64,000 nucleotides of DNA from a virus (taxonomy: Duplodnaviria > Caudoviricetes), in IMG/VR virus record IMGVR_UViG_3300032233_002382, positions 128,001 through 192,000 of that record. The stretch is one strand, 5' to 3'. Made by a program: the position numbers and the translations under genes. This document shows, piece by piece, positions 15,212 through 23,292 of the stretch. The notes beneath the pieces were generated by a model. The model made no database searches and had not been told where the DNA came from. It saw only the letters and a list, made by a program, of their open reading frames with translations. Numbering within the stretch: the first letter of the stretch is position 1; each line of letters begins with the position of its first letter.

Positions 15212-15808
15212 ATGAAATTACCTATATTTAAAAATGTCGAAGAGCTTCGGGCAAATCTGGTAGAGCATAACTCCACTAAAGTATATGAGTCTCTTACTAA
15301 GTCAGGAATAAAACCGAGCTGCAAAAAAGGCTGTGCCTCATGTTGTTATCGAAAGATATATGTGACGTTAGCTGAGGCTATAATCATCTATAGAGAAATA
15401 AAGAAAAAGAAGATACTACAAGAGGTACTCAAGGACTGTAAAAAGAATGAATCCATAGTGAGTGAAACAGATGCGAACTCTTATTTTGTTATGAAAATTC
15501 CGTGTCCCTTATTGAATACGAAAACGAATTCATGTAGAGTGTATTCTGTTAGGCCGGTTGGATGTTCCACTCACTGGGTTTTATCAAGCCCTAAGCTTTG
15601 TGACCCGTGGAATTCAACGAATGCACAGTATAGACCTTTCCAGTTTAACTCAATAGCGAATTCCTTTTATAAGATTGCCGCTCGTAAGAATGGTACTCAG
15701 GCGCTAATACGTCTTCCGATTCAGCAGGCATTACTAATAGTCGATGGTATGACGAAGCGGCAGTTTGCCTCGTTAGAGGATTTCATAATCGAAGCGGGTA
15801 AAAGATGA
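15212..15808 (+). CDS. YkgJ/FliB-like cysteine-cluster (Fe-S or Zn) protein
   Basis: CKKGCASCC ... CPLL ... CRVYSVRPVGC. Confidence 0.85.
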   Translation: MKLPIFKNVEELRANLVEHNSTKVYESLTKSGIKPSCKKGCASCCYRKIYVTLAEAIIIYREIKKKKILQEVLKDCKKNESIVSETDANSYFVMKIPCPLLNTKTNSCRVYSVRPVGCSTHWVLSSPKLCDPWNSTNAQYRPFQFNSIANSFYKIAARKNGTQALIRLPIQQALLIVDGMTKRQFASLEDFIIEAGKR

Positions 15809-16068
15809 CAGGACCTTGCCTTTTTTGTGACAAGCCTTCGCCATTGCGTGTAAAAGCGAATACCGTAGAGAATAATAGAGACTTGCATGTGTGCGATATG
15901 CACTGGAAGATACTTCAAAATCCGCACACAGCTTTACCTTTTTTGCGTGGCGTAAGCATGATGCAGCTACAAAGAGACGAAATAAAATATGACGGAACCG
16001 TTAAGAAGCTAGTTGAAGGGTATTTTGATAGTATCGCTAAGTGGAAAAAGCAAAATCCGAAGAATTAG
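15805..16068 (+). CDS. Small Zn-finger-like hypothetical protein
   Basis: CLFC ... CDMH; ATGA overlap with the upstream gene. Confidence 0.55.
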   Translation: MTGPCLFCDKPSPLRVKANTVENNRDLHVCDMHWKILQNPHTALPFLRGVSMMQLQRDEIKYDGTVKKLVEGYFDSIAKWKKQNPKN

Positions 16069-16696
16069 AAACAACACCATTTATTTTATGGCGTATTTCT
16101 CGTATGTGCTTGTTCGTGATGGTCTTCCCGCCGTAAGATAAAGCTAGGCGGATAACCTCAACGTTCGCTCCGGTGCGAGCAGCTCTAATGAATTTTGCGC
16201 AGTCATACATCTTCTTTTGTCGGCATATTTCTTCAAGTTCAAGAACGCTTTCACTTTCCACAAAATTGCTCGATGGTTCCATCTCGGCTGTCTCTACGAG
16301 CGGTCGTTCTTCATCATTCATTGGTTCATAAATGCTGTCTTTTTCCTTGTCGTACCTTCTCTTTTTGTGAACAAGGTTTATACACACGTTGTTCGCGACC
16401 ATGTAAACATAGTGACCGAAACTCGACTTGCGCGGATCATGGGCGCTTTTCGTGTAATTCTTGTGAAGGATCGCTGCATAAACCTCCTGGAGCAGTTCTT
16501 CCATAGGAATACCTTCAACACTAAAAAATTTGTGTACTAGCTTAATGATATCCTGACGCTTCTTTAGAACGTCGATTCCCAGATCCACTTTGTCATTATC
16601 AACAGCTTTACGTGGCCATGGATACTTTGTGGGAGCTTTTTTGAGTTCTTTTTCGGTCCGAATATAAGCAATCGCTGGCTGGTCGGCTGCGCTCAT
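16037..16696 (-). CDS. Sigma70-family (ECF-like) RNA polymerase sigma factor
   Basis: EELLQEVYAAIL...HDPRKSSFGHYVYMVANNVCINLVHKKRR (region 2); GAGGG SD. Confidence 0.72.
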   Translation of the reverse strand: MSAADQPAIAYIRTEKELKKAPTKYPWPRKAVDNDKVDLGIDVLKKRQDIIKLVHKFFSVEGIPMEELLQEVYAAILHKNYTKSAHDPRKSSFGHYVYMVANNVCINLVHKKRRYDKEKDSIYEPMNDEERPLVETAEMEPSSNFVESESVLELEEICRQKKMYDCAKFIRAARTGANVEVIRLALSYGGKTITNKHIREIRHKINGVVSNSSDFAFST

Positions 16697-16796: not shown

Positions 16797-17390
16797 ATGA
16801 AAGCCGATTTCTTAAAAGAATGTCATGGTGAAATTACCGCAAAAGCGGGTATGCCAGTTCCTTTGAATGACTTCATGAATGAGTATTGCAGAATTTGCCA
16901 AAATAAAGACTGCGGACGATCTGCTGGATCGAACAGTTTAATGTTTAATCGAGCCATAAACTGGCAAAATCGTCTATTTCTAGATGTTAAGCAAGACGTT
17001 AACGATCCAAAGTACGATCTGATTCGTAGCAAATGGTTTAAGCAAGAACAGATTTCAGTAAATGGTGAATTACTCGAAAATGCAAATCAAACGACAGAAT
17101 TTGTGAATTCACCTCCGGAACCCCAAGAACGCACTCCACCTGAGCCTGTTGGTTCTGATACGGTATTGTCTATCAGTAATGTCGAGCCCACAGAGTATGA
17201 AAACCGTTCAACCGAAGAGCCTAGAGATGTGATTAAAATAGAAGAGCCTAGAGGTGTGCTTAAGATAGAAGAGGTACCCAACAACCGAACCGTTGATTCT
17301 ATAATCCCACCTGACGGCGAACAATTCTTGGATGATGGTCGAAATGATGTAGTTATAAAACCTGGCGGCTCATTTACTTTCGGTGATTAA
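16797..17390 (+). CDS. Hypothetical protein (Cys-rich N-terminus, acidic linker)
   Basis: YCRICQNKDC; conserved-looking tail IKPGGSFTFG. Confidence 0.65.
   Translation: MKADFLKECHGEITAKAGMPVPLNDFMNEYCRICQNKDCGRSAGSNSLMFNRAINWQNRLFLDVKQDVNDPKYDLIRSKWFKQEQISVNGELLENANQTTEFVNSPPEPQERTPPEPVGSDTVLSISNVEPTEYENRSTEEPRDVIKIEEPRGVLKIEEVPNNRTVDSIIPPDGEQFLDDGRNDVVIKPGGSFTFGD
17214..17273 (+). repeat. Imperfect 27-bp in-frame tandem duplication
   Basis: GAAGAGCCTAGAGATGTGATTAAAATA / GAAGAGCCTAGAGGTGTGCTTAAGATA / GAAGAG (EEPRDVIKI EEPRGVLKI EE). Confidence 0.85.
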
Positions 17391-18070
17391 TGTCGACAGC
17401 ATTACTAAGCACGGATGACATCAGTATTCTTAATCAGACGCGTCGGTCGATAAACTCTCAAGACATTGATTCAGTCGCACTTGAGATCGAAACCAACCAT
17501 CCAAATCTACCAGTACACATTAAAGAAAGACTGTTGACTGAATTCAGTGTCATGCTGTCTGATCCAGGAACGTACTTGATCGATGAGTCTACCGGTTCGG
17601 TAATATTCAAGATTTCGGCAGAAATGTTAGTGCAATACCCTGATCTCAAAAGAGAAGATGGACGTTTAGTCTCGCGTGACAAGACGCTTCATCCCAAATT
17701 CACGAGTGCATTAGCTCTTAGCAGACATCACCAAACTAAGCTAGATCGGGTTATAAGGGATCAGCCATTCGAATCAGTCGAACATATCGTCGATCCGAAG
17801 AGTATTCTTAGAGAAGCCAAAACGCTTACTAAGAAAACCTATGCGAACTTACCGGTCGATAGTGAAACAGACTTGATTGAGATAGGCCGTGAGAATGTGA
17901 ACGGTATATTCCAGGCTTTCAATCCTAAATTCATTAGAACCAACATGTATGGGGCCCAGCTAGCTAAGGTCCTGGACCAAATAGAGCATCCGAATTATGA
18001 ATTCTTAGGAATAAAAATGAGATCTAATTACAAAGAGATGTGGTACGAGGTGTTAGTTCGAATCGGATAG
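17390..18070 (+). CDS. Hypothetical protein
   Basis: ORF with TAATG coupling to the upstream gene. Confidence 0.65.
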   Translation: MSTALLSTDDISILNQTRRSINSQDIDSVALEIETNHPNLPVHIKERLLTEFSVMLSDPGTYLIDESTGSVIFKISAEMLVQYPDLKREDGRLVSRDKTLHPKFTSALALSRHHQTKLDRVIRDQPFESVEHIVDPKSILREAKTLTKKTYANLPVDSETDLIEIGRENVNGIFQAFNPKFIRTNMYGAQLAKVLDQIEHPNYEFLGIKMRSNYKEMWYEVLVRIG

Positions 18071-18601
18071 CAAATTTTTCGGAATTTCAAATATTTGTAG
18101 CACTTTGTGTAATACCGATGACATGGCTAATTGAAAATCGCTAACCCCAACCACCCTGATGCTCTCTAAGCTCTCGAGAAGTTCTAATATTCGATCGATT
18201 TCGCATTTATAAGTAAAATCGATGTATATACCCAGTGGAAGCATTGGCACGATATCGGCCGGGTCCGTTAGATGCTGAGATATGTTCTTAAAAATAAGAC
18301 ATGTCCTATTAAGCTCTGCATGTAGAGCGGAATTCACCGATGCTGATATGGAACGTACAGACCTTGCTGGTAGACTGAATCTTTCATCCGTTAGCTGTGG
18401 CATCCACGTGGCGACAGGATCGGCGATTCGAAAATTCTCAATTATTCCACGGGGGAGTAAGACTGGACTTAAAGTCTGAAACAATATACAAGGAATCCTG
18501 ATTTCTATGGAAGCGCGTCGCTTAATCGGATCACATGCATCGAGACGCACTTGTCCATGCTCGAAGAATGTCGCATCATCAAGCGGCGCCGGATCACTCA
18601 T
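18053..18601 (-). CDS. Degenerate ThyX-fold protein lacking the RHRx7SxR catalytic motif
   Basis: By-eye alignment to ThyX: HGQVRL, IEIRIPCIL, WMP, LPLGIYIDFTYK; translationally coupled to dcd. Confidence 0.5.
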   Translation of the reverse strand: MSDPAPLDDATFFEHGQVRLDACDPIKRRASIEIRIPCILFQTLSPVLLPRGIIENFRIADPVATWMPQLTDERFSLPARSVRSISASVNSALHAELNRTCLIFKNISQHLTDPADIVPMLPLGIYIDFTYKCEIDRILELLESLESIRVVGVSDFQLAMSSVLHKVLQIFEIPKNLLSDSN

Positions 18602-19139
18602 TGCGTCTTTTACCTTTCGCAGGCGTGGCCCCCATCTGCATGTTGTAGTGGGATTTCAGACGGCTGCTACCATATAAGGTTTGACTTGGGGAAGTCATCG
18701 TAAAATACGATAGTTGTGCGATCTTCATTCCTTCATACAGCACAATTTCCCAAGGACCGTGGTTAACTATTTCAAGCGTAATTTGGCCTCGGAATCCAGC
18801 GTCCACCACGCCCGCTGTAACGTGGATCGCCAAAAACAAACGACCTAGACTGCTCTTTCCTTCTACTCGTGCCGATAAATCCTGAGGACACTCGACGATT
18901 TCCTGAGTGCATCCCAGAATAGACTCGCCTGGCAAAATAATAAACTCGTTTGCGCGGATTATCGTCATACATTTCGAGGGATCATCATCTCTGAGATCGA
19001 TTCTCACCCCGAGGTGGGGCAGTGCGAACGAATCTGACAGGGATAGATCATAGCTTGAAGGTTGAACACGGCCTTCTGCAAACGGCTTAATAAGATCAGG
19101 TCCTCTTGCAAGTATTTCACGATCGCTAAGCACACTCAT
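18594..19139 (-). CDS. dcd: dCTP deaminase (EGKSSLGRL type, possibly dUMP-forming)
   Basis: LSDREI, VQPSSYDL, RVEGKSSLGRL, HVTAGVVDAGFRGQITLE, IAQL, YGS; GGAG SD before ATG 19139. Confidence 0.93.
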   Translation of the reverse strand: MSVLSDREILARGPDLIKPFAEGRVQPSSYDLSLSDSFALPHLGVRIDLRDDDPSKCMTIIRANEFIILPGESILGCTQEIVECPQDLSARVEGKSSLGRLFLAIHVTAGVVDAGFRGQITLEIVNHGPWEIVLYEGMKIAQLSYFTMTSPSQTLYGSSRLKSHYNMQMGATPAKGKRRNE

Positions 19140-19151
19140 CACTACTCCGAA

Positions 19152-19158
19152 GTATAGT
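19152..19158 (+). promoter_or_regulatory. Putative -10 element (GTATAGT), leaderless start at 19164
   Basis: TAnnnT-N5-ATG; overlapping TATACT on the minus strand. Confidence 0.6.
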
Positions 19159-19163
19159 TAAAT

Positions 19164-19427
19164 ATGAAAGACTCGTTGACGGCTGAAGAGTTCAAGACAG
19201 CTATGATGTTGGTGAACCATTTAGACAACAATACTGTATCCGAAGAGCTCGAACGTCTGAGTCAACGAGAGCTCGACCTCCTAAATGTTCCCACGATCAC
19301 ACCCGAAGACAGGGAAATAATCCTATATAACCTCGTGGTTCTAAGCGCGGCATCTGCTAGAATAAAGCATGCTATTGTGATAGAAGAACCTAGTTATTCT
19401 CTAACCGACACCGAAGAGTCGGGATAA
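19164..19427 (+). CDS. Hypothetical protein
   Basis: ORF track; promoter spacing fits. Confidence 0.55.
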   Translation: MKDSLTAEEFKTAMMLVNHLDNNTVSEELERLSQRELDLLNVPTITPEDREIILYNLVVLSAASARIKHAIVIEEPSYSLTDTEESG

Positions 19428-22247
19428 TATCTCGAATTCAGGCACGCTTATCTTCGGAGATTTCTCCTCTGATATCAAAATCTTATTCGACGTATTAAGC
19501 ACACGAAGTGGGGTTCGGCCTTCGGCAAGTATGCAGATGGCGTGAAATTTCCTGAGGTTTAGTTCATTCATAGGAGCCCTGAACACGAACCTATGTACCG
19601 AGTTATCAGCATTAATCGCTTCTGGTGGCGCTGCATTTGAAGAATCAGTCGTGTTGACTACTGTCTTAGGATCAGCATGATCAATACGCTCTTCAAGTAC
19701 GCTGTCGCTGCGTTCACGATCCACGCTAGATACTTGCGATACTTCCGTGCTTAGAGCCTGTATGGGTGGATCGAGTTCTACTTCGTTGTGATGTTCCACT
19801 GATTCAGAAGATGGAGACTCGGATTCGGGATTAGATACGACTTCAGCCTCAAACGGATTCGGCTCTTCAGATTTCGCTTCTACTTCACTCGCTCGTCGGA
19901 TCCAACTGGCCAAGAAATCTGGGACTTTCTGATATACTCGTCCGTTGTCGTAGTATTCATCTTTCTTAAGCTTGCCTTTAAAATTCCCATCAATATCGAA
20001 TTCTTTGGGTTGAGGCTTAACGCCATCAACCATCTTAAAGTAGTCATAACGAGCTTTCCAGTTTATGTCGATACCCGGTTCAGTCAGCAAAGGTACTACC
20101 CAATCGCGACCGTGAGCCTTAGGCAGCTTCCAAGGCATTGTCATCCATTCATCTAACTTACGCACTGCTTCCATGAGAAGTTCGGGCTTAATCTCGTATA
20201 CGACTTCATCATGGACCGTAAGGACATACTTTACCTTATCCTCCCAACCGTTCGCTCTAATATTCTTATCGACAAAACACATGGCGAATTTAAGGATGTC
20301 GGCAGAGGTTGCCTGAATTGTATAATTGATCGCACACCGTTCCGCTTTTGAACGGATCATCCTTATTGGGCTATCAATTGTCGGGATTGGTATACGCCGC
20401 CCATAAGCCGTGAAGATCGCTTTGTGCTTCTTGGCGAAATTCTTCTGATGGTCCACGTACCCCATGAGAACCGGCACATCGCGCTTAAGATTTTCCATGT
20501 GACGACCTGCGTCCTCCATGGAACACCCGATATTGCGCTGGATGGCGCCAGCACCACCACCGTAAATGAAGGCAAAGTTACACCGTTTGCCACGGTTACG
20601 TTCATCTTTGCTGACTACATCTTTACCGAATAATGTCTTTGCCGTAATTGCATGAACGTCACCGTCTTTATTTAAGAAGGAATCGGTCCAAATGGGATCG
20701 CCTGAAAGATTCGTAACCACCCGAAGTTCTTCGCCTGCGAAGTCTAGCTTGACTAAGAAATAACCAGGTCTAGGAGTAATGCAAGACCTTATCTGCTTGA
20801 ACAACTCCGGTTTATCATCATCTGAATCTCGGGGGATACCTTGGAAATTTATGCCGGAGTAACCGTTCTCGATATCACCAGCTCTAGACGCGAGACGAGC
20901 AGTATCGGTCCCCATCTGTCGGAAGTCAGGTCGAACGTCACCGTTTTTGTCGACTGCCAAAGAAAGGGGCTCGACGTAACTTCCTTTCATCTTTAGATAG
21001 TGTCGCCATTCGATGATCAATTCGAACAAACTGATCATCTTCTGCTTGCCGTCTTTATCCAGGTGGCCCTTATGGGGTAGCATGAACTTAGCCCCGTAGG
21101 CTTCGTGCAAACTCTTCATCGCTTCATCTTTAAGCGAGTATTGCTTTTGTGCCTCCCCTGGCGTCTCAGACACATCATCGTCATCATCTGAGTCCGAAGA
21201 GGCGTTCCCGCCTTGTTCCTGCTCCCCCAACATAACGGAAGTAGGCTTTAGCTTAAGACCTTCCGGATCTGTAATGAGAGCGGTTGATAATTGCTTCGGA
21301 CTGCCTACGTTGAGAGTCGACCAACGACCGGTCTTACCGGTCCTAGACTCAATACAGTTCCTGATCTGGTCACCGACTTCTAGTAATTCTCTGTCGCATT
21401 CGATCGCCAATTGCTTTACACGTTCTACGTCTACATGGACGCGATTGCGTTCCATCTTACGTAGCACATTGCAGAAACTCTTCTCAAGGTTATATATCTT
21501 TTTGTCGCCTTCAGATAGTTTCTCCTGTAAGGCGAAGTTCAGAAGGTATGTGAAAATCCCGTCACTACATCCGTACTCAAGACCTTCCTTCGGATGAAGA
21601 ACACCGAAGTTGTGGGTCGATCTCTTCTCTCTCTTGAGCTGAGCTCTCATTTCATCGGTAAAGAGTTCATCAAGTTCGATCATATCTACGTTAAAATAAA
21701 CTTTAGCTAGTTGCTTTAACCCGCTTGGTGATCCCTTGAGCGGATTGAGAACTTTAGTCATCAAAAACGTGTCTTCATATTCATCGATTTTCCAGGTCTC
21801 TTTACCGGTCACCGCATAAAGGAATTCCTGGTCGAATTTCGCATTATGAAATACAGCTTTCGATTTAGAATGAACAAGTCGCTCGATTTCATTCCAAGCC
21901 AAGTCCCACTCTAAATTGGGGCTACCCTCAGGTTCATGAGAGAGTGGAATGTAATAACCATTCTTTCCATCAAAGGAAATGCAAACGCCTACAATGCGAT
22001 CGATCGTTCGCATCCCATGACGAGTCAGCTTCCCATCGTCGAAGTATGAATCTTCATATACTCGATTATCAACGCCCGTCGTTTCTAAGTCTAATGAATA
22101 AACATTACGGGAAATACACATGTCAACCAGCTTGGCTAATTGAGATATGCTAGACACAAGGTGGAACTTATAGTCAGACATCCAATTACGCATCACGCTG
22201 GGTTTGTCGTCGTACTGTAATAAATTCAAGGCATCCTCCGATACCAT
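19401..22247 (-). CDS. polA: Family A DNA polymerase with 3'-5' exonuclease and C-terminal extension
   Basis: ExoI LDLETTG, ExoII FHNAKFD, ExoIII YGCSD, motif A LDFAGEELR, motif B RGKRCNFAFIYG, motif C TVHDEV; exact start uncertain. Confidence 0.95.
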   Translation of the reverse strand: MVSEDALNLLQYDDKPSVMRNWMSDYKFHLVSSISQLAKLVDMCISRNVYSLDLETTGVDNRVYEDSYFDDGKLTRHGMRTIDRIVGVCISFDGKNGYYIPLSHEPEGSPNLEWDLAWNEIERLVHSKSKAVFHNAKFDQEFLYAVTGKETWKIDEYEDTFLMTKVLNPLKGSPSGLKQLAKVYFNVDMIELDELFTDEMRAQLKREKRSTHNFGVLHPKEGLEYGCSDGIFTYLLNFALQEKLSEGDKKIYNLEKSFCNVLRKMERNRVHVDVERVKQLAIECDRELLEVGDQIRNCIESRTGKTGRWSTLNVGSPKQLSTALITDPEGLKLKPTSVMLGEQEQGGNASSDSDDDDDVSETPGEAQKQYSLKDEAMKSLHEAYGAKFMLPHKGHLDKDGKQKMISLFELIIEWRHYLKMKGSYVEPLSLAVDKNGDVRPDFRQMGTDTARLASRAGDIENGYSGINFQGIPRDSDDDKPELFKQIRSCITPRPGYFLVKLDFAGEELRVVTNLSGDPIWTDSFLNKDGDVHAITAKTLFGKDVVSKDERNRGKRCNFAFIYGGGAGAIQRNIGCSMEDAGRHMENLKRDVPVLMGYVDHQKNFAKKHKAIFTAYGRRIPIPTIDSPIRMIRSKAERCAINYTIQATSADILKFAMCFVDKNIRANGWEDKVKYVLTVHDEVVYEIKPELLMEAVRKLDEWMTMPWKLPKAHGRDWVVPLLTEPGIDINWKARYDYFKMVDGVKPQPKEFDIDGNFKGKLKKDEYYDNGRVYQKVPDFLASWIRRASEVEAKSEEPNPFEAEVVSNPESESPSSESVEHHNEVELDPPIQALSTEVSQVSSVDRERSDSVLEERIDHADPKTVVNTTDSSNAAPPEAINADNSVHRFVFRAPMNELNLRKFHAICILAEGRTPLRVLNTSNKILISEEKSPKISVPEFEILSRLFGVG

Positions 22248-22251
22248 CAAT

Positions 22252-22258
22252 GTACATT
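22252..22258 (+). promoter_or_regulatory. Putative -10 element (GTACATT) for dnaJ
   Basis: Predicted +1 is G22264, the first base of the GAGG SD. Confidence 0.5.
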
Positions 22259-22272
22259 TAATCGAGGTTAGA

Positions 22273-23292
22273 ATGGATTATTACGAGGTATTAGGGGTAA
22301 CAAGAGCGTCTGACGAAGAGACGATAAAGAAAGCATACAGGAAACTAGCCTTCGAATATCATCCGGACCGGAACAATGGCGATAGCTTAAAAGAAGCTAA
22401 GTTCAAGGAGATAAACGAGGCCTATGCTACCCTAAGCGACGCTGCTAAACGAAAGTCGTACGATGCGAAGTTCTCTGGGGCGCCCAAGATCGACGATATT
22501 TTCAATGAGATATTTCGTAATTTCCACAGAAGGCAATCTCAAGAATTTAGAGTCGAATCACTGCCGGGCGCTGACATTGAAGTAAACGTTAAAATATCTC
22601 TAATCGACTCATATGTCGGTAAGTCCATCGACGTAGACGTTCCTCACAGTAACGAATGCGGTACCTGCCGAGCGACGGGAGCAAAACCAGGAAGCCGTGT
22701 CATTACATGCCAAACTTGCTACGGTAATGGATACTTTAGGGATCCATTCAATATAGGAAATCGGAAGTGTCCGGCGTGTAAAGGACGAAAAGTATTTCCG
22801 ATCGAAAAATGTGACGCCTGTGCTGGTGAAGGATCTAAGGCCACGAAGGAATCCGTGAACGTTAAACTACCATCGGGCATTAAAGACGGGCATGTCATAA
22901 AAATTAATGGTAAAGGCGAACCCGGAGATCCAAACGGAGATCTGCTATTAAACATCATCACCATTATGACACCAGGCATTCGCCGTGTCGGTGATGACTG
23001 TTATCACGACCTAGAATTACCTATATCGTTAATGATAACAGGAGGACGACATACCTTCCCCACGCAGATGGGTTATTCACTAGACGTTTCAGTAGAACCG
23101 AACAGCAAAACCGATGATTTCGTCCAGATAAAAGGTAAAGGATTTCGCAATCTATCGACGAATGGGATCGGGGATTTGTACTTGATTCTGAAACCACAAT
23201 TACCATCGAATATTCCGGAAACTGCAAAAGAGCTTCTTAATAAATTCATCGAAGAATGCGAAAATCATAACTGCTTTAGTCGGGACAAATGA
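22273..23292 (+). CDS. dnaJ: DnaJ/Hsp40 chaperone (J domain, four CxxCxGxG-type Zn motifs, C-terminal domain)
   Basis: DYYEVLG...EYHPDRN; CGTCRATG, CQTCYGNG, CPACKGRK, CDACAGEG; GAGG SD before ATG 22273. Confidence 0.93.
   Translation: MDYYEVLGVTRASDEETIKKAYRKLAFEYHPDRNNGDSLKEAKFKEINEAYATLSDAAKRKSYDAKFSGAPKIDDIFNEIFRNFHRRQSQEFRVESLPGADIEVNVKISLIDSYVGKSIDVDVPHSNECGTCRATGAKPGSRVITCQTCYGNGYFRDPFNIGNRKCPACKGRKVFPIEKCDACAGEGSKATKESVNVKLPSGIKDGHVIKINGKGEPGDPNGDLLLNIITIMTPGIRRVGDDCYHDLELPISLMITGGRHTFPTQMGYSLDVSVEPNSKTDDFVQIKGKGFRNLSTNGIGDLYLILKPQLPSNIPETAKELLNKFIEECENHNCFSRDK

Follow-up and report, generated by a model that had tools for sequence, protein, structure and literature searches.

ThyX is a flavoenzyme of deoxythymidine monophosphate (dTMP) synthesis and a homotetramer with functional sites at its subunit interfaces. 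To our knowledge hardly any role other than an enzymatic one has been described for the ThyX fold, which occurs in ThyX itself and in the related methylase PolB. PolB, the methylase of uridine and deoxyuridine monophosphate (UMP and dUMP) in polyoxin biosynthesis (PDB entry 4p5a), employs the fold in a task beyond housekeeping dTMP synthesis. It is a flavin- and folate-dependent enzyme, whereas the phage protein described here has the ThyX fold without the residues for such chemistry. This protein, X (P0001), has 182 residues and is encoded next to a deoxycytidine triphosphate (dCTP) deaminase gene, dcd, in a phage of the Caudoviricetes. The window analysed is the 64,000-nucleotide stretch at bases 128001–192000 of the 307,777-bp record IMGVR_UViG_3300032233_002382, whose completeness is 72% by the CheckV estimate; positions are those of the window unless a contig is named. 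X resembles no characterised protein in its mode of action, and the nearest in fold, ThyX and PolB, are both flavoenzymes. Full-text literature searches, which also covered ThyX-like proteins of phages, brought up neither a ThyX homologue described as catalytically dead nor a ThyX pseudoenzyme. We class X as a pseudoenzyme branch of the ThyX fold. As a whole explanation we think it rather probable that X, a non-catalytic protein with the ThyX fold, is under selection, self-associates and belongs to a module for replication and deoxythymidine triphosphate (dTTP) supply.

The AlphaFold2 (AF2) model of X was built on an alignment of 62 family sequences and replaces a two-sequence model with a predicted local distance difference test score (pLDDT) of 68. 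The new model has a pLDDT of 93.7 and a predicted template modelling score (pTM) of 0.86. Foldseek against the PDB gives 52 matches at E < 1e-3, and all 50 of those listed are T. maritima ThyX chains, with a best E-value of 7.6e-5 and template modelling (TM) scores of 0.62–0.65. VIA-align, which is independent of Foldseek, was run against 48,161 chains. Its top match is T. maritima ThyX 5chp, with a Z-score of 13.3, 158 aligned residues and a root-mean-square deviation of 3.7. The next four are all ThyX-family structures, 2af6 (Z 11.1), PolB 4p5a (10.4 over 152 residues), PBCV-1 4fzb (10.1) and 3ah5 (9.7), and the best-scoring non-ThyX fold reaches a Z-score of 6.2. Thy1 families are also returned by BFVD, by the ESM-Atlas structure search and by the ESM-Atlas language-model features. 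X shares with T. maritima ThyX (TM0449; PDB entries 1kq4, 1o26 and 5chp; PF02511) the order of strands and helices and an LPL-type motif before strand 5. ThyX, however, has about 220 residues against 182 in X, and the X family is acidic, with a median isoelectric point (pI) of 5.2; X itself is without a Pfam match. As modelled, X descends from ThyX or shares its fold; the resemblance to ThyX put forward in the original prediction is thus real at the level of the fold, with the listed Foldseek matches and the top VIA-align matches of the AF2 model confined to the ThyX family.

A phage protein of similar size is the 'ThyX-like thymidylate synthase' of Gordonia phage Skog (185 residues, A0A6G6XKC7), which matches the X model in Foldseek with an E-value of 3.8e-4 and TM scores of 0.57–0.58. 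Skog also encodes a second, longer ThyX-like protein of 372 residues. Short actinobacteriophage ThyX-like proteins of the Skog kind have no detectable sequence relation to X: a tblastn search of X against 50,697 phage records finds no match.

The relation to ThyX is much fainter in sequence. The family profile matches T. maritima ThyX weakly (E 0.28–0.4), with profile positions 81–161 against chain residues 127–208. Within the same region, a local hhalign of the segment from LPLG into the following helix is also weak (P 0.005). A global hhalign of the X family with an alignment of the ThyX C-domain is insignificant (probability 0.1%) and was not used for residue mapping. The Thy1/TIGR02170 profile gives no match above the cut-off, and just one of the 62 family members touches Thy1, with an E-value of 0.24. 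The by-eye alignment from which the resemblance was first proposed is essentially right in fold, but its sequence signal is weak and is found only at the fourth of its matches, the LPLG-to-helix segment. The best PDB match of the family profile is chymotrypsin inhibitor 2 (E 0.01–0.7). It was rejected as a chance match, because it is a coincidence of about 30 residues (LPxGxxVxxEYR) in a 64-residue protein of another fold. By every sequence-level test X lies outside ThyX, and by its fold it lies inside.

The model locates what X has lost. In ThyX proteins a helical segment of about 40 residues lies between strands 2 and 3 and carries the flavin-binding GH(E/S/T)..E(H) motif; both PDB entry 3ge9 and the ThyX encoded by this phage contain it. 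In the AF2 model of X, the strands 16–24 and 29–37 form a tight hairpin with a four-residue turn. With this helical insert missing, the shortfall of roughly 40 residues in X is explained. These residues had been described as missing from the N terminus; they are indeed missing, but from between strands 2 and 3. The RHRx7SxR signature, to which flavin adenine dinucleotide (FAD) and dUMP bind, is found in none of the 62 aligned family members. Its replacement in X had been recognised before, and it extends to all relatives; the last arginine (R58), which was counted as kept, is basic in only 48% of the members. No column from 40 to 70 exceeds 48% Lys, Arg or His, in any register. The only semi-conserved basic positions in X are R28 (66%) and R/K132 (73%), and the latter is the one such position in columns 108–150. 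We take the dUMP phosphate and O4 contacts of ThyX to be made by arginines R147 and R174 (T. maritima ThyX numbering). In the local hhalign (weak, P 0.005, register uncertain), D128 of X is aligned with the invariant ThyX arginine that stands six residues beyond the LPL proline. The ELR arginine of ThyX lies one column beyond the end of this alignment and would fall on L145, again in an uncertain register. Because the FAD-binding insert, the RHR/SxR residues and the dUMP arginines appear to be lost family-wide, X presumably cannot make dTMP by the ThyX mechanism. Judged from the alignment and the model together, it is very likely that X is a ThyX-fold pseudoenzyme, both selected and non-catalytic. 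A repurposed dUMP-binding protein, as was also suggested, is weakened as an idea by the same columns, only two of which are 66–73% basic, and by the median pI of 5.2.

A rebuilt site in X is one alternative. The highly conserved polar residues of the family are D24 (97%), Y126 (94%), E/D155 (94%) and D136 (77%). These positions, with the near-invariant aromatic W66, are what might be expected if X had kept a ligand-binding or catalytic function in a rebuilt site, either as a nucleotide sensor or as an enzyme acting on deoxyuridine (dU) or deoxycytidine (dC) nucleotides for a non-standard base. The very strong purifying selection on X (below) agrees with such a function. So does the setting, a module rich in nucleotide metabolism, with an adenylosuccinate-synthetase-family (PurZ/PurA-like) gene beside the phage's ThyX, by which the base chemistry may be unusual, and two complete relatives that have no separate dUTPase. 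On the other hand, hardly any conserved basic residue is available to hold a phosphate, the FAD-binding insert is deleted, and the conserved positions are mostly Pro, Gly and hydrophobic residues located in a predicted self-interface. We regard a rebuilt site as rather unlikely.

Searched exhaustively with a profile, 1.84 billion representative proteins yield an X family of 77 clusters, 72 of them at E < 1e-10; a word-indexed protein search had found one relative only, and the family emerged by the exhaustive search. The members are 74–295 residues long across the 77 clusters, which leaves no fusions. The longest, P0009 (295 residues) and P0014 (249 residues), have short, unannotated extensions and offer no Rosetta-stone clue. 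In the 62-sequence alignment P37 and P122 are invariant, and D24, G52, P62, W66, P68, L121, G124 and Y126 are conserved in at least 90% of the sequences. The ratio of nonsynonymous to synonymous substitution rates (dN/dS) was calculated for pairs of relatives with unsaturated synonymous divergence, named here by their loci (L and a number). It is 0.04 for L024/L022 (dS 0.63), 0.10 for L026/L036, and 0.03–0.04 for L020 and L021 against L022 and L024. X is single-copy in the window's genome (G000) and in two complete relatives, G001 and G002 (393 and 436 kb).

These data bear on whether X is a gene at all. X alone has no match in Pfam (E ≤ 10), PHROG, NCBIfam or the PDB sequences, as a decaying ThyX pseudogene or a spurious open reading frame (ORF) would have none. 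But the 77 homologous clusters have intact frames, dN/dS is 0.03–0.10, the position is fixed and the copy single in two complete genomes, and the structure is modelled with confidence. The pseudogene reading is refuted and keeps virtually no probability; the neutral decay that would mark a simple pseudogene, an outcome named beforehand in the original prediction, is not seen, and neither is the other refuting outcome named there, a lack of any structural match to ThyX.

The conservation pattern acquires a meaning from the predicted assembly. When four copies of X are co-folded, the interaction prediction score from aligned errors (ipSAE) is 0.71, 0.70 and 0.71, with the best control at 0.25. 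The runs have at least 63% of contacts in common, and partner pLDDT is at least 78. In the calibration of the ipSAE mark, which used jobs of another set-up, the proteins that pass are 20 of the 30 solved as same-chain pairs and 1 of the 23 single chains. The predicted interface is two-fold symmetric and involves residues 37–49, 65–79, 85–125 and 151, with a contact between the two residues 122 on the axis. The invariant or near-invariant P37, W66-x-P68 and PxLPLG all fall in this interface. That the family conserves Pro, Gly and hydrophobic residues rather than polar catalytic ones would be explained by conservation of an oligomer interface in place of an active site. X likely self-associates, as modelled, through this two-fold interface.

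The phage has a ThyX of its own. A tandem two-domain ThyX of 434 residues (P0005) is encoded outside the window at G000:C1:1931-3235, minus strand (equivalent to L001:841-2145), about 143 kb from X. It matches Pfam Thy1 with 127 bits in two domains. Instead of RHR...SxR the N-domain carries FQR...STRY; the C-domain retains RHR, but SxR is absent from it. Read in this way, the two halves are complementary half-degenerate copies that jointly hold one full motif set, as in bacterial long-form ThyX, and from its motifs P0005 is probably active. Homologues of 448–474 residues occur in the complete relatives G001 and G002. The long-form tandem ThyX (434–474 residues) thus shares its genomes with X, and its single domains are also part-degenerate in the signature. 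It differs in that P0005 matches Thy1 and has one full motif set, while X is a single short domain with no motifs. A search for thyX or thyA elsewhere in the genome, which the original prediction had proposed as a check, finds this tandem ThyX and no ThyA in the window's phage genome. The argument that X sits where a thymidylate synthase is expected, immediately after dcd, loses its force with a real tandem ThyX about 143 kb away. X is an additional ThyX-fold protein and not the phage's thymidylate synthase.

Coexistence with a real ThyX raises the question of mixed oligomers. The ThyX active sites are built across subunit interfaces, as in T. maritima ThyX, so that a dead subunit would be dominant-negative. 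X could accordingly be imagined as a decoy subunit, which either poisons dTMP synthesis of the host, as had been suggested for host ThyX tetramers, or modulates the phage's tandem ThyX. The predicted two-fold interface includes the sole sequence motif common to X and ThyX (LPLG against LPL[AN]), and X and the tandem ThyX occur together in all three large genomes examined. The interface residues P37 and W66-x-P68, however, belong to the X family and are not shared with ThyX. A phage that encodes a ThyX and a dU-feeding deaminase would seem to act against its own interest by blocking dTMP synthesis. We consider a decoy role improbable.

These genomes have further features of note. A gene of the adenylosuccinate-synthetase family (PF00709, a frame of about 405–420 residues) adjoins the tandem ThyX in all three genomes, at G000:C1:3891-5033 (minus strand), G001:C1:295661-296680 and G002:C1:402863-404005. 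If this gene is PurZ and not PurA, the phage clade may use 2-aminoadenine in its DNA. No dUTPase-family gene besides Dcd is found in G000, G001 or G002. This lack raised the possibility of a phage with dU in its DNA, which was rejected, as the tandem ThyX argues against it (criteria of PMC7824862). A second match to PF00383, the cytidine/deoxycytidine monophosphate (dCMP) deaminase family, is present in the window's genome at G000:C1:40275-40565 (plus strand; 31.7 bits, a 127-residue frame), and none is present in G001 and G002.

The gene order around X is as follows.

16037–16696, minus strand: sigma-70-region-2-like protein, 219 residues, part of the conserved module
17390–18070, plus strand: convergent 226-residue gene, which overlaps X by 18 nucleotides, 3' end to 3' end
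18053–18601, minus strand: X (P0001), 182 residues, very likely a non-catalytic ThyX-fold protein, member of the 77-cluster family
18594–18601, minus strand: dcd/X overlap of 8 nucleotides, ATGAGTGA, with the dcd stop codon and the ATG start of X, as read from the sequence
18594–19142, minus strand: dcd (P0002), dCTP deaminase of the 'short' 182-residue type, which fills, as an accessory gene, the variable slot between PolA and X
19164–19427, plus strand: 87-residue ORF, antisense to PolA/dcd and lying between both, overlapping the 3' end of PolA
19401–22250, minus strand: family-A DNA polymerase (PolA), 949 residues, with 3'-5' exonuclease and polymerase domains by Pfam
22204–23292, plus strand: DnaJ-type chaperone, 362 residues, divergent from PolA, the upstream limit of the conserved module

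The gene upstream of X is by its sequence a genuine dCTP deaminase. It matches Pfam DCD (1e-37), PHROG 1663 (1.3e-46) and the equivalog TIGR02274 with 143.2 bits against a cut-off of 92.8, over residues 8–176. The 182-residue ORF adjoining it was correctly called, and the 8-nucleotide overlap suggests translational coupling of dcd and X. PolA matches Pfam DNA_pol_A (7e-65) and DNA_pol_A_exo1 (1.1e-7), and the chaperone matches DnaJ (3e-26) and DnaJ_C (5e-24). The sigma-like protein is matched by Pfam Sigma70_r2 at 1.3e-4, which is below the cut-off, and by PHROG 1740 at 2.6e-5. The convergent 226-residue gene is found at the same position in nearly all related loci, and Pfam, PHROG and the ESM Atlas give no lead to it. 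The 87-residue ORF has no Pfam or PHROG match; L004, L020, L022, L023, L026, L030, L033 and L035 carry homologues in the corresponding position. A promoter and terminator scan of 17800–19600 finds no sites, fewer than in shuffles, which tells nothing in a phage that encodes a sigma-like factor itself. Among sequencing runs, one DNA metagenome contains this stretch and may be its source sample; no RNA run is listed as containing it.

About 25 distinct related loci were collected from IMG/VR, JGI, ENA and Logan contigs in a search with an 11-sequence X alignment, and they were annotated with profiles of the window's genes. The order is DnaJ on the opposite strand, PolA, a variable slot, X, a convergent gene of 226 to 300 residues, a gene of 170 to 200 residues and the sigma-like gene, and it holds in every locus whose contig reaches far enough. 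Wherever the contig extends far enough upstream, PolA precedes X without exception. The constant companion of X is thus the DNA polymerase and not Dcd, a point missed in the original prediction. In the relatives X is joined tightly to any upstream gene, with an overlap or a gap of 2–9 nucleotides.

The content of the slot changes from locus to locus. It holds a short Dcd in the window, L020, L025, L029, L030 and L037, and a long Dcd, 30–37% identical to the short type, in L004, L005, L006, L010, L012, L022, L024, L026/L036, L027, L031 and L034. In L033 it holds a zinc dCMP-deaminase-family gene (L033:721-1197; PF00383 66 bits, phrog_174 5e-44), with a 2-nucleotide gap to X. By its profile matches this gene is a non-homologous replacement of Dcd. 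Zinc 'dCMP deaminase' homologues of phages can be dCTP deaminases (PMC12697855), and the L033 enzyme may for this reason do the job of Dcd. Small ORFs of no assigned function fill the slot in L023, L032 and L035. In L007, L008, L014 and L015 it is empty, with PolA directly before X. A Dcd adjoining X is absent from 8 of the roughly 25 distinct loci. The pair L020 and L022 shows the exchange most directly: the identity is 86% for PolA, 98% for the 87-residue antisense ORF, 95% for X and 76% for the downstream gene of the 226-residue type, but only 32% for Dcd. On the X tree the slot content takes 9 changes against a mean of 10.6 after shuffling, so it is barely clustered, and the well-supported branches alone force several changes. 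From this comparison of loci the deaminase appears as a labile cassette, placed before the stable core gene X, and not as an obligate partner of X. ORFs resembling HNH endonucleases lie between the short Dcd and X at L020:2240-2929 (phrog_2255 1.6e-7) and L025:2398-3108 (6.6e-7), which suggests exchange of the deaminase cassette driven by homing endonucleases. The slot is an unusually clear case of its kind, with three kinds of cytosine-nucleotide deaminase exchanged and an HNH endonuclease gene alongside in two loci.

The same loci bear on a dedicated partnership with Dcd, in which X would be its scaffold, regulator or inhibitor, made in a fixed ratio through translational coupling. The 8-nucleotide overlap in the window fits such a partner, Dcd lies directly upstream of X in about two thirds of the related loci, and some deaminase has been placed repeatedly at this spot. 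Yet X persists where no deaminase is upstream (L007, L008, L014, L015) or where the slot holds small ORFs (L023, L032, L035), and in these loci without Dcd it can be coupled just as tightly to PolA. L033 carries a structurally unrelated zinc deaminase instead. With X 95% identical between L020 and L022 and their Dcds 32% identical, a specific interface would need to tolerate all these partners. A Dcd-partner role is quite improbable, and the scaffold for Dcd that had been offered as one of the possible functions is made unlikely, with 8 of about 25 loci lacking an adjacent Dcd.

We return to X as a self-associating, non-catalytic ThyX-fold protein of the replication module. In this reading X would exert its function through binding instead of catalysis, as a structural or regulatory oligomer within a phage module for replication and pyrimidine supply (dC to dU to dT). 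It possibly couples nucleotide supply to the polymerase or to the ThyX that the phage encodes. The deaminase gene before X would be a swappable accessory cassette.

Several points weigh against this reading. Gene order is the sole evidence for an adaptor or regulator role, and co-transcription with a polymerase is not equal to shared function. The arrival of three cytosine-nucleotide deaminase kinds at the 5' side of X could indicate a closer tie to the production of dU nucleotides than a swappable accessory would have. D24, Y126, E/D155 and D136 could, from their conservation, form a new binding or catalytic site. The co-folding job used four copies and a custom alignment, unlike the tool's calibration, and the single pairwise interface reported from it falls short of a ThyX-like tetramer. 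The self-association score may also partly reflect the model's memory of ThyX oligomers.

A more specific form of the proposal makes X the organising subunit of a viral thymidylate-supply complex. The dead oligomer would dock on the tandem ThyX, on PolA or on both, and dU from the slot deaminase would be turned into dTTP at the fork. We judge this arrangement fairly unlikely. If true, X would be the first ThyX-fold pseudoenzyme to have its role defined, and huge phages would have in it a polymerase accessory factor of a new kind. Independently of this, X is a ThyX fold stripped of its cofactor and substrate sites, yet under very strong selection, and it belongs, in a single copy, to the core of the replication operon in a clade of 300–440-kb phages. 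The family offers an expressible target for the question of how huge phages tie nucleotide supply to replication.

Some further features of the module were observed. PolA has an acidic low-complexity insertion with an Asp run at residues ~330–400, and a long low-complexity linker in the region 800–949. After the linker comes a conserved C-terminal domain, about 65 residues long, which is still recognisable just before X in the short contigs L007, L014 and L032. This domain could be a docking module. A putative metal-chelating CxxCxxCC protein (15212–15808, plus strand) is fixed in the same syntenic block as the sigma-like protein. Near the module in two relatives, at L007:2909-3775 and L010:14848-15519, lie a FolD-type methylene-tetrahydrofolate dehydrogenase/cyclohydrolase and an HD-domain YfbR-like 5'-deoxynucleotidase.

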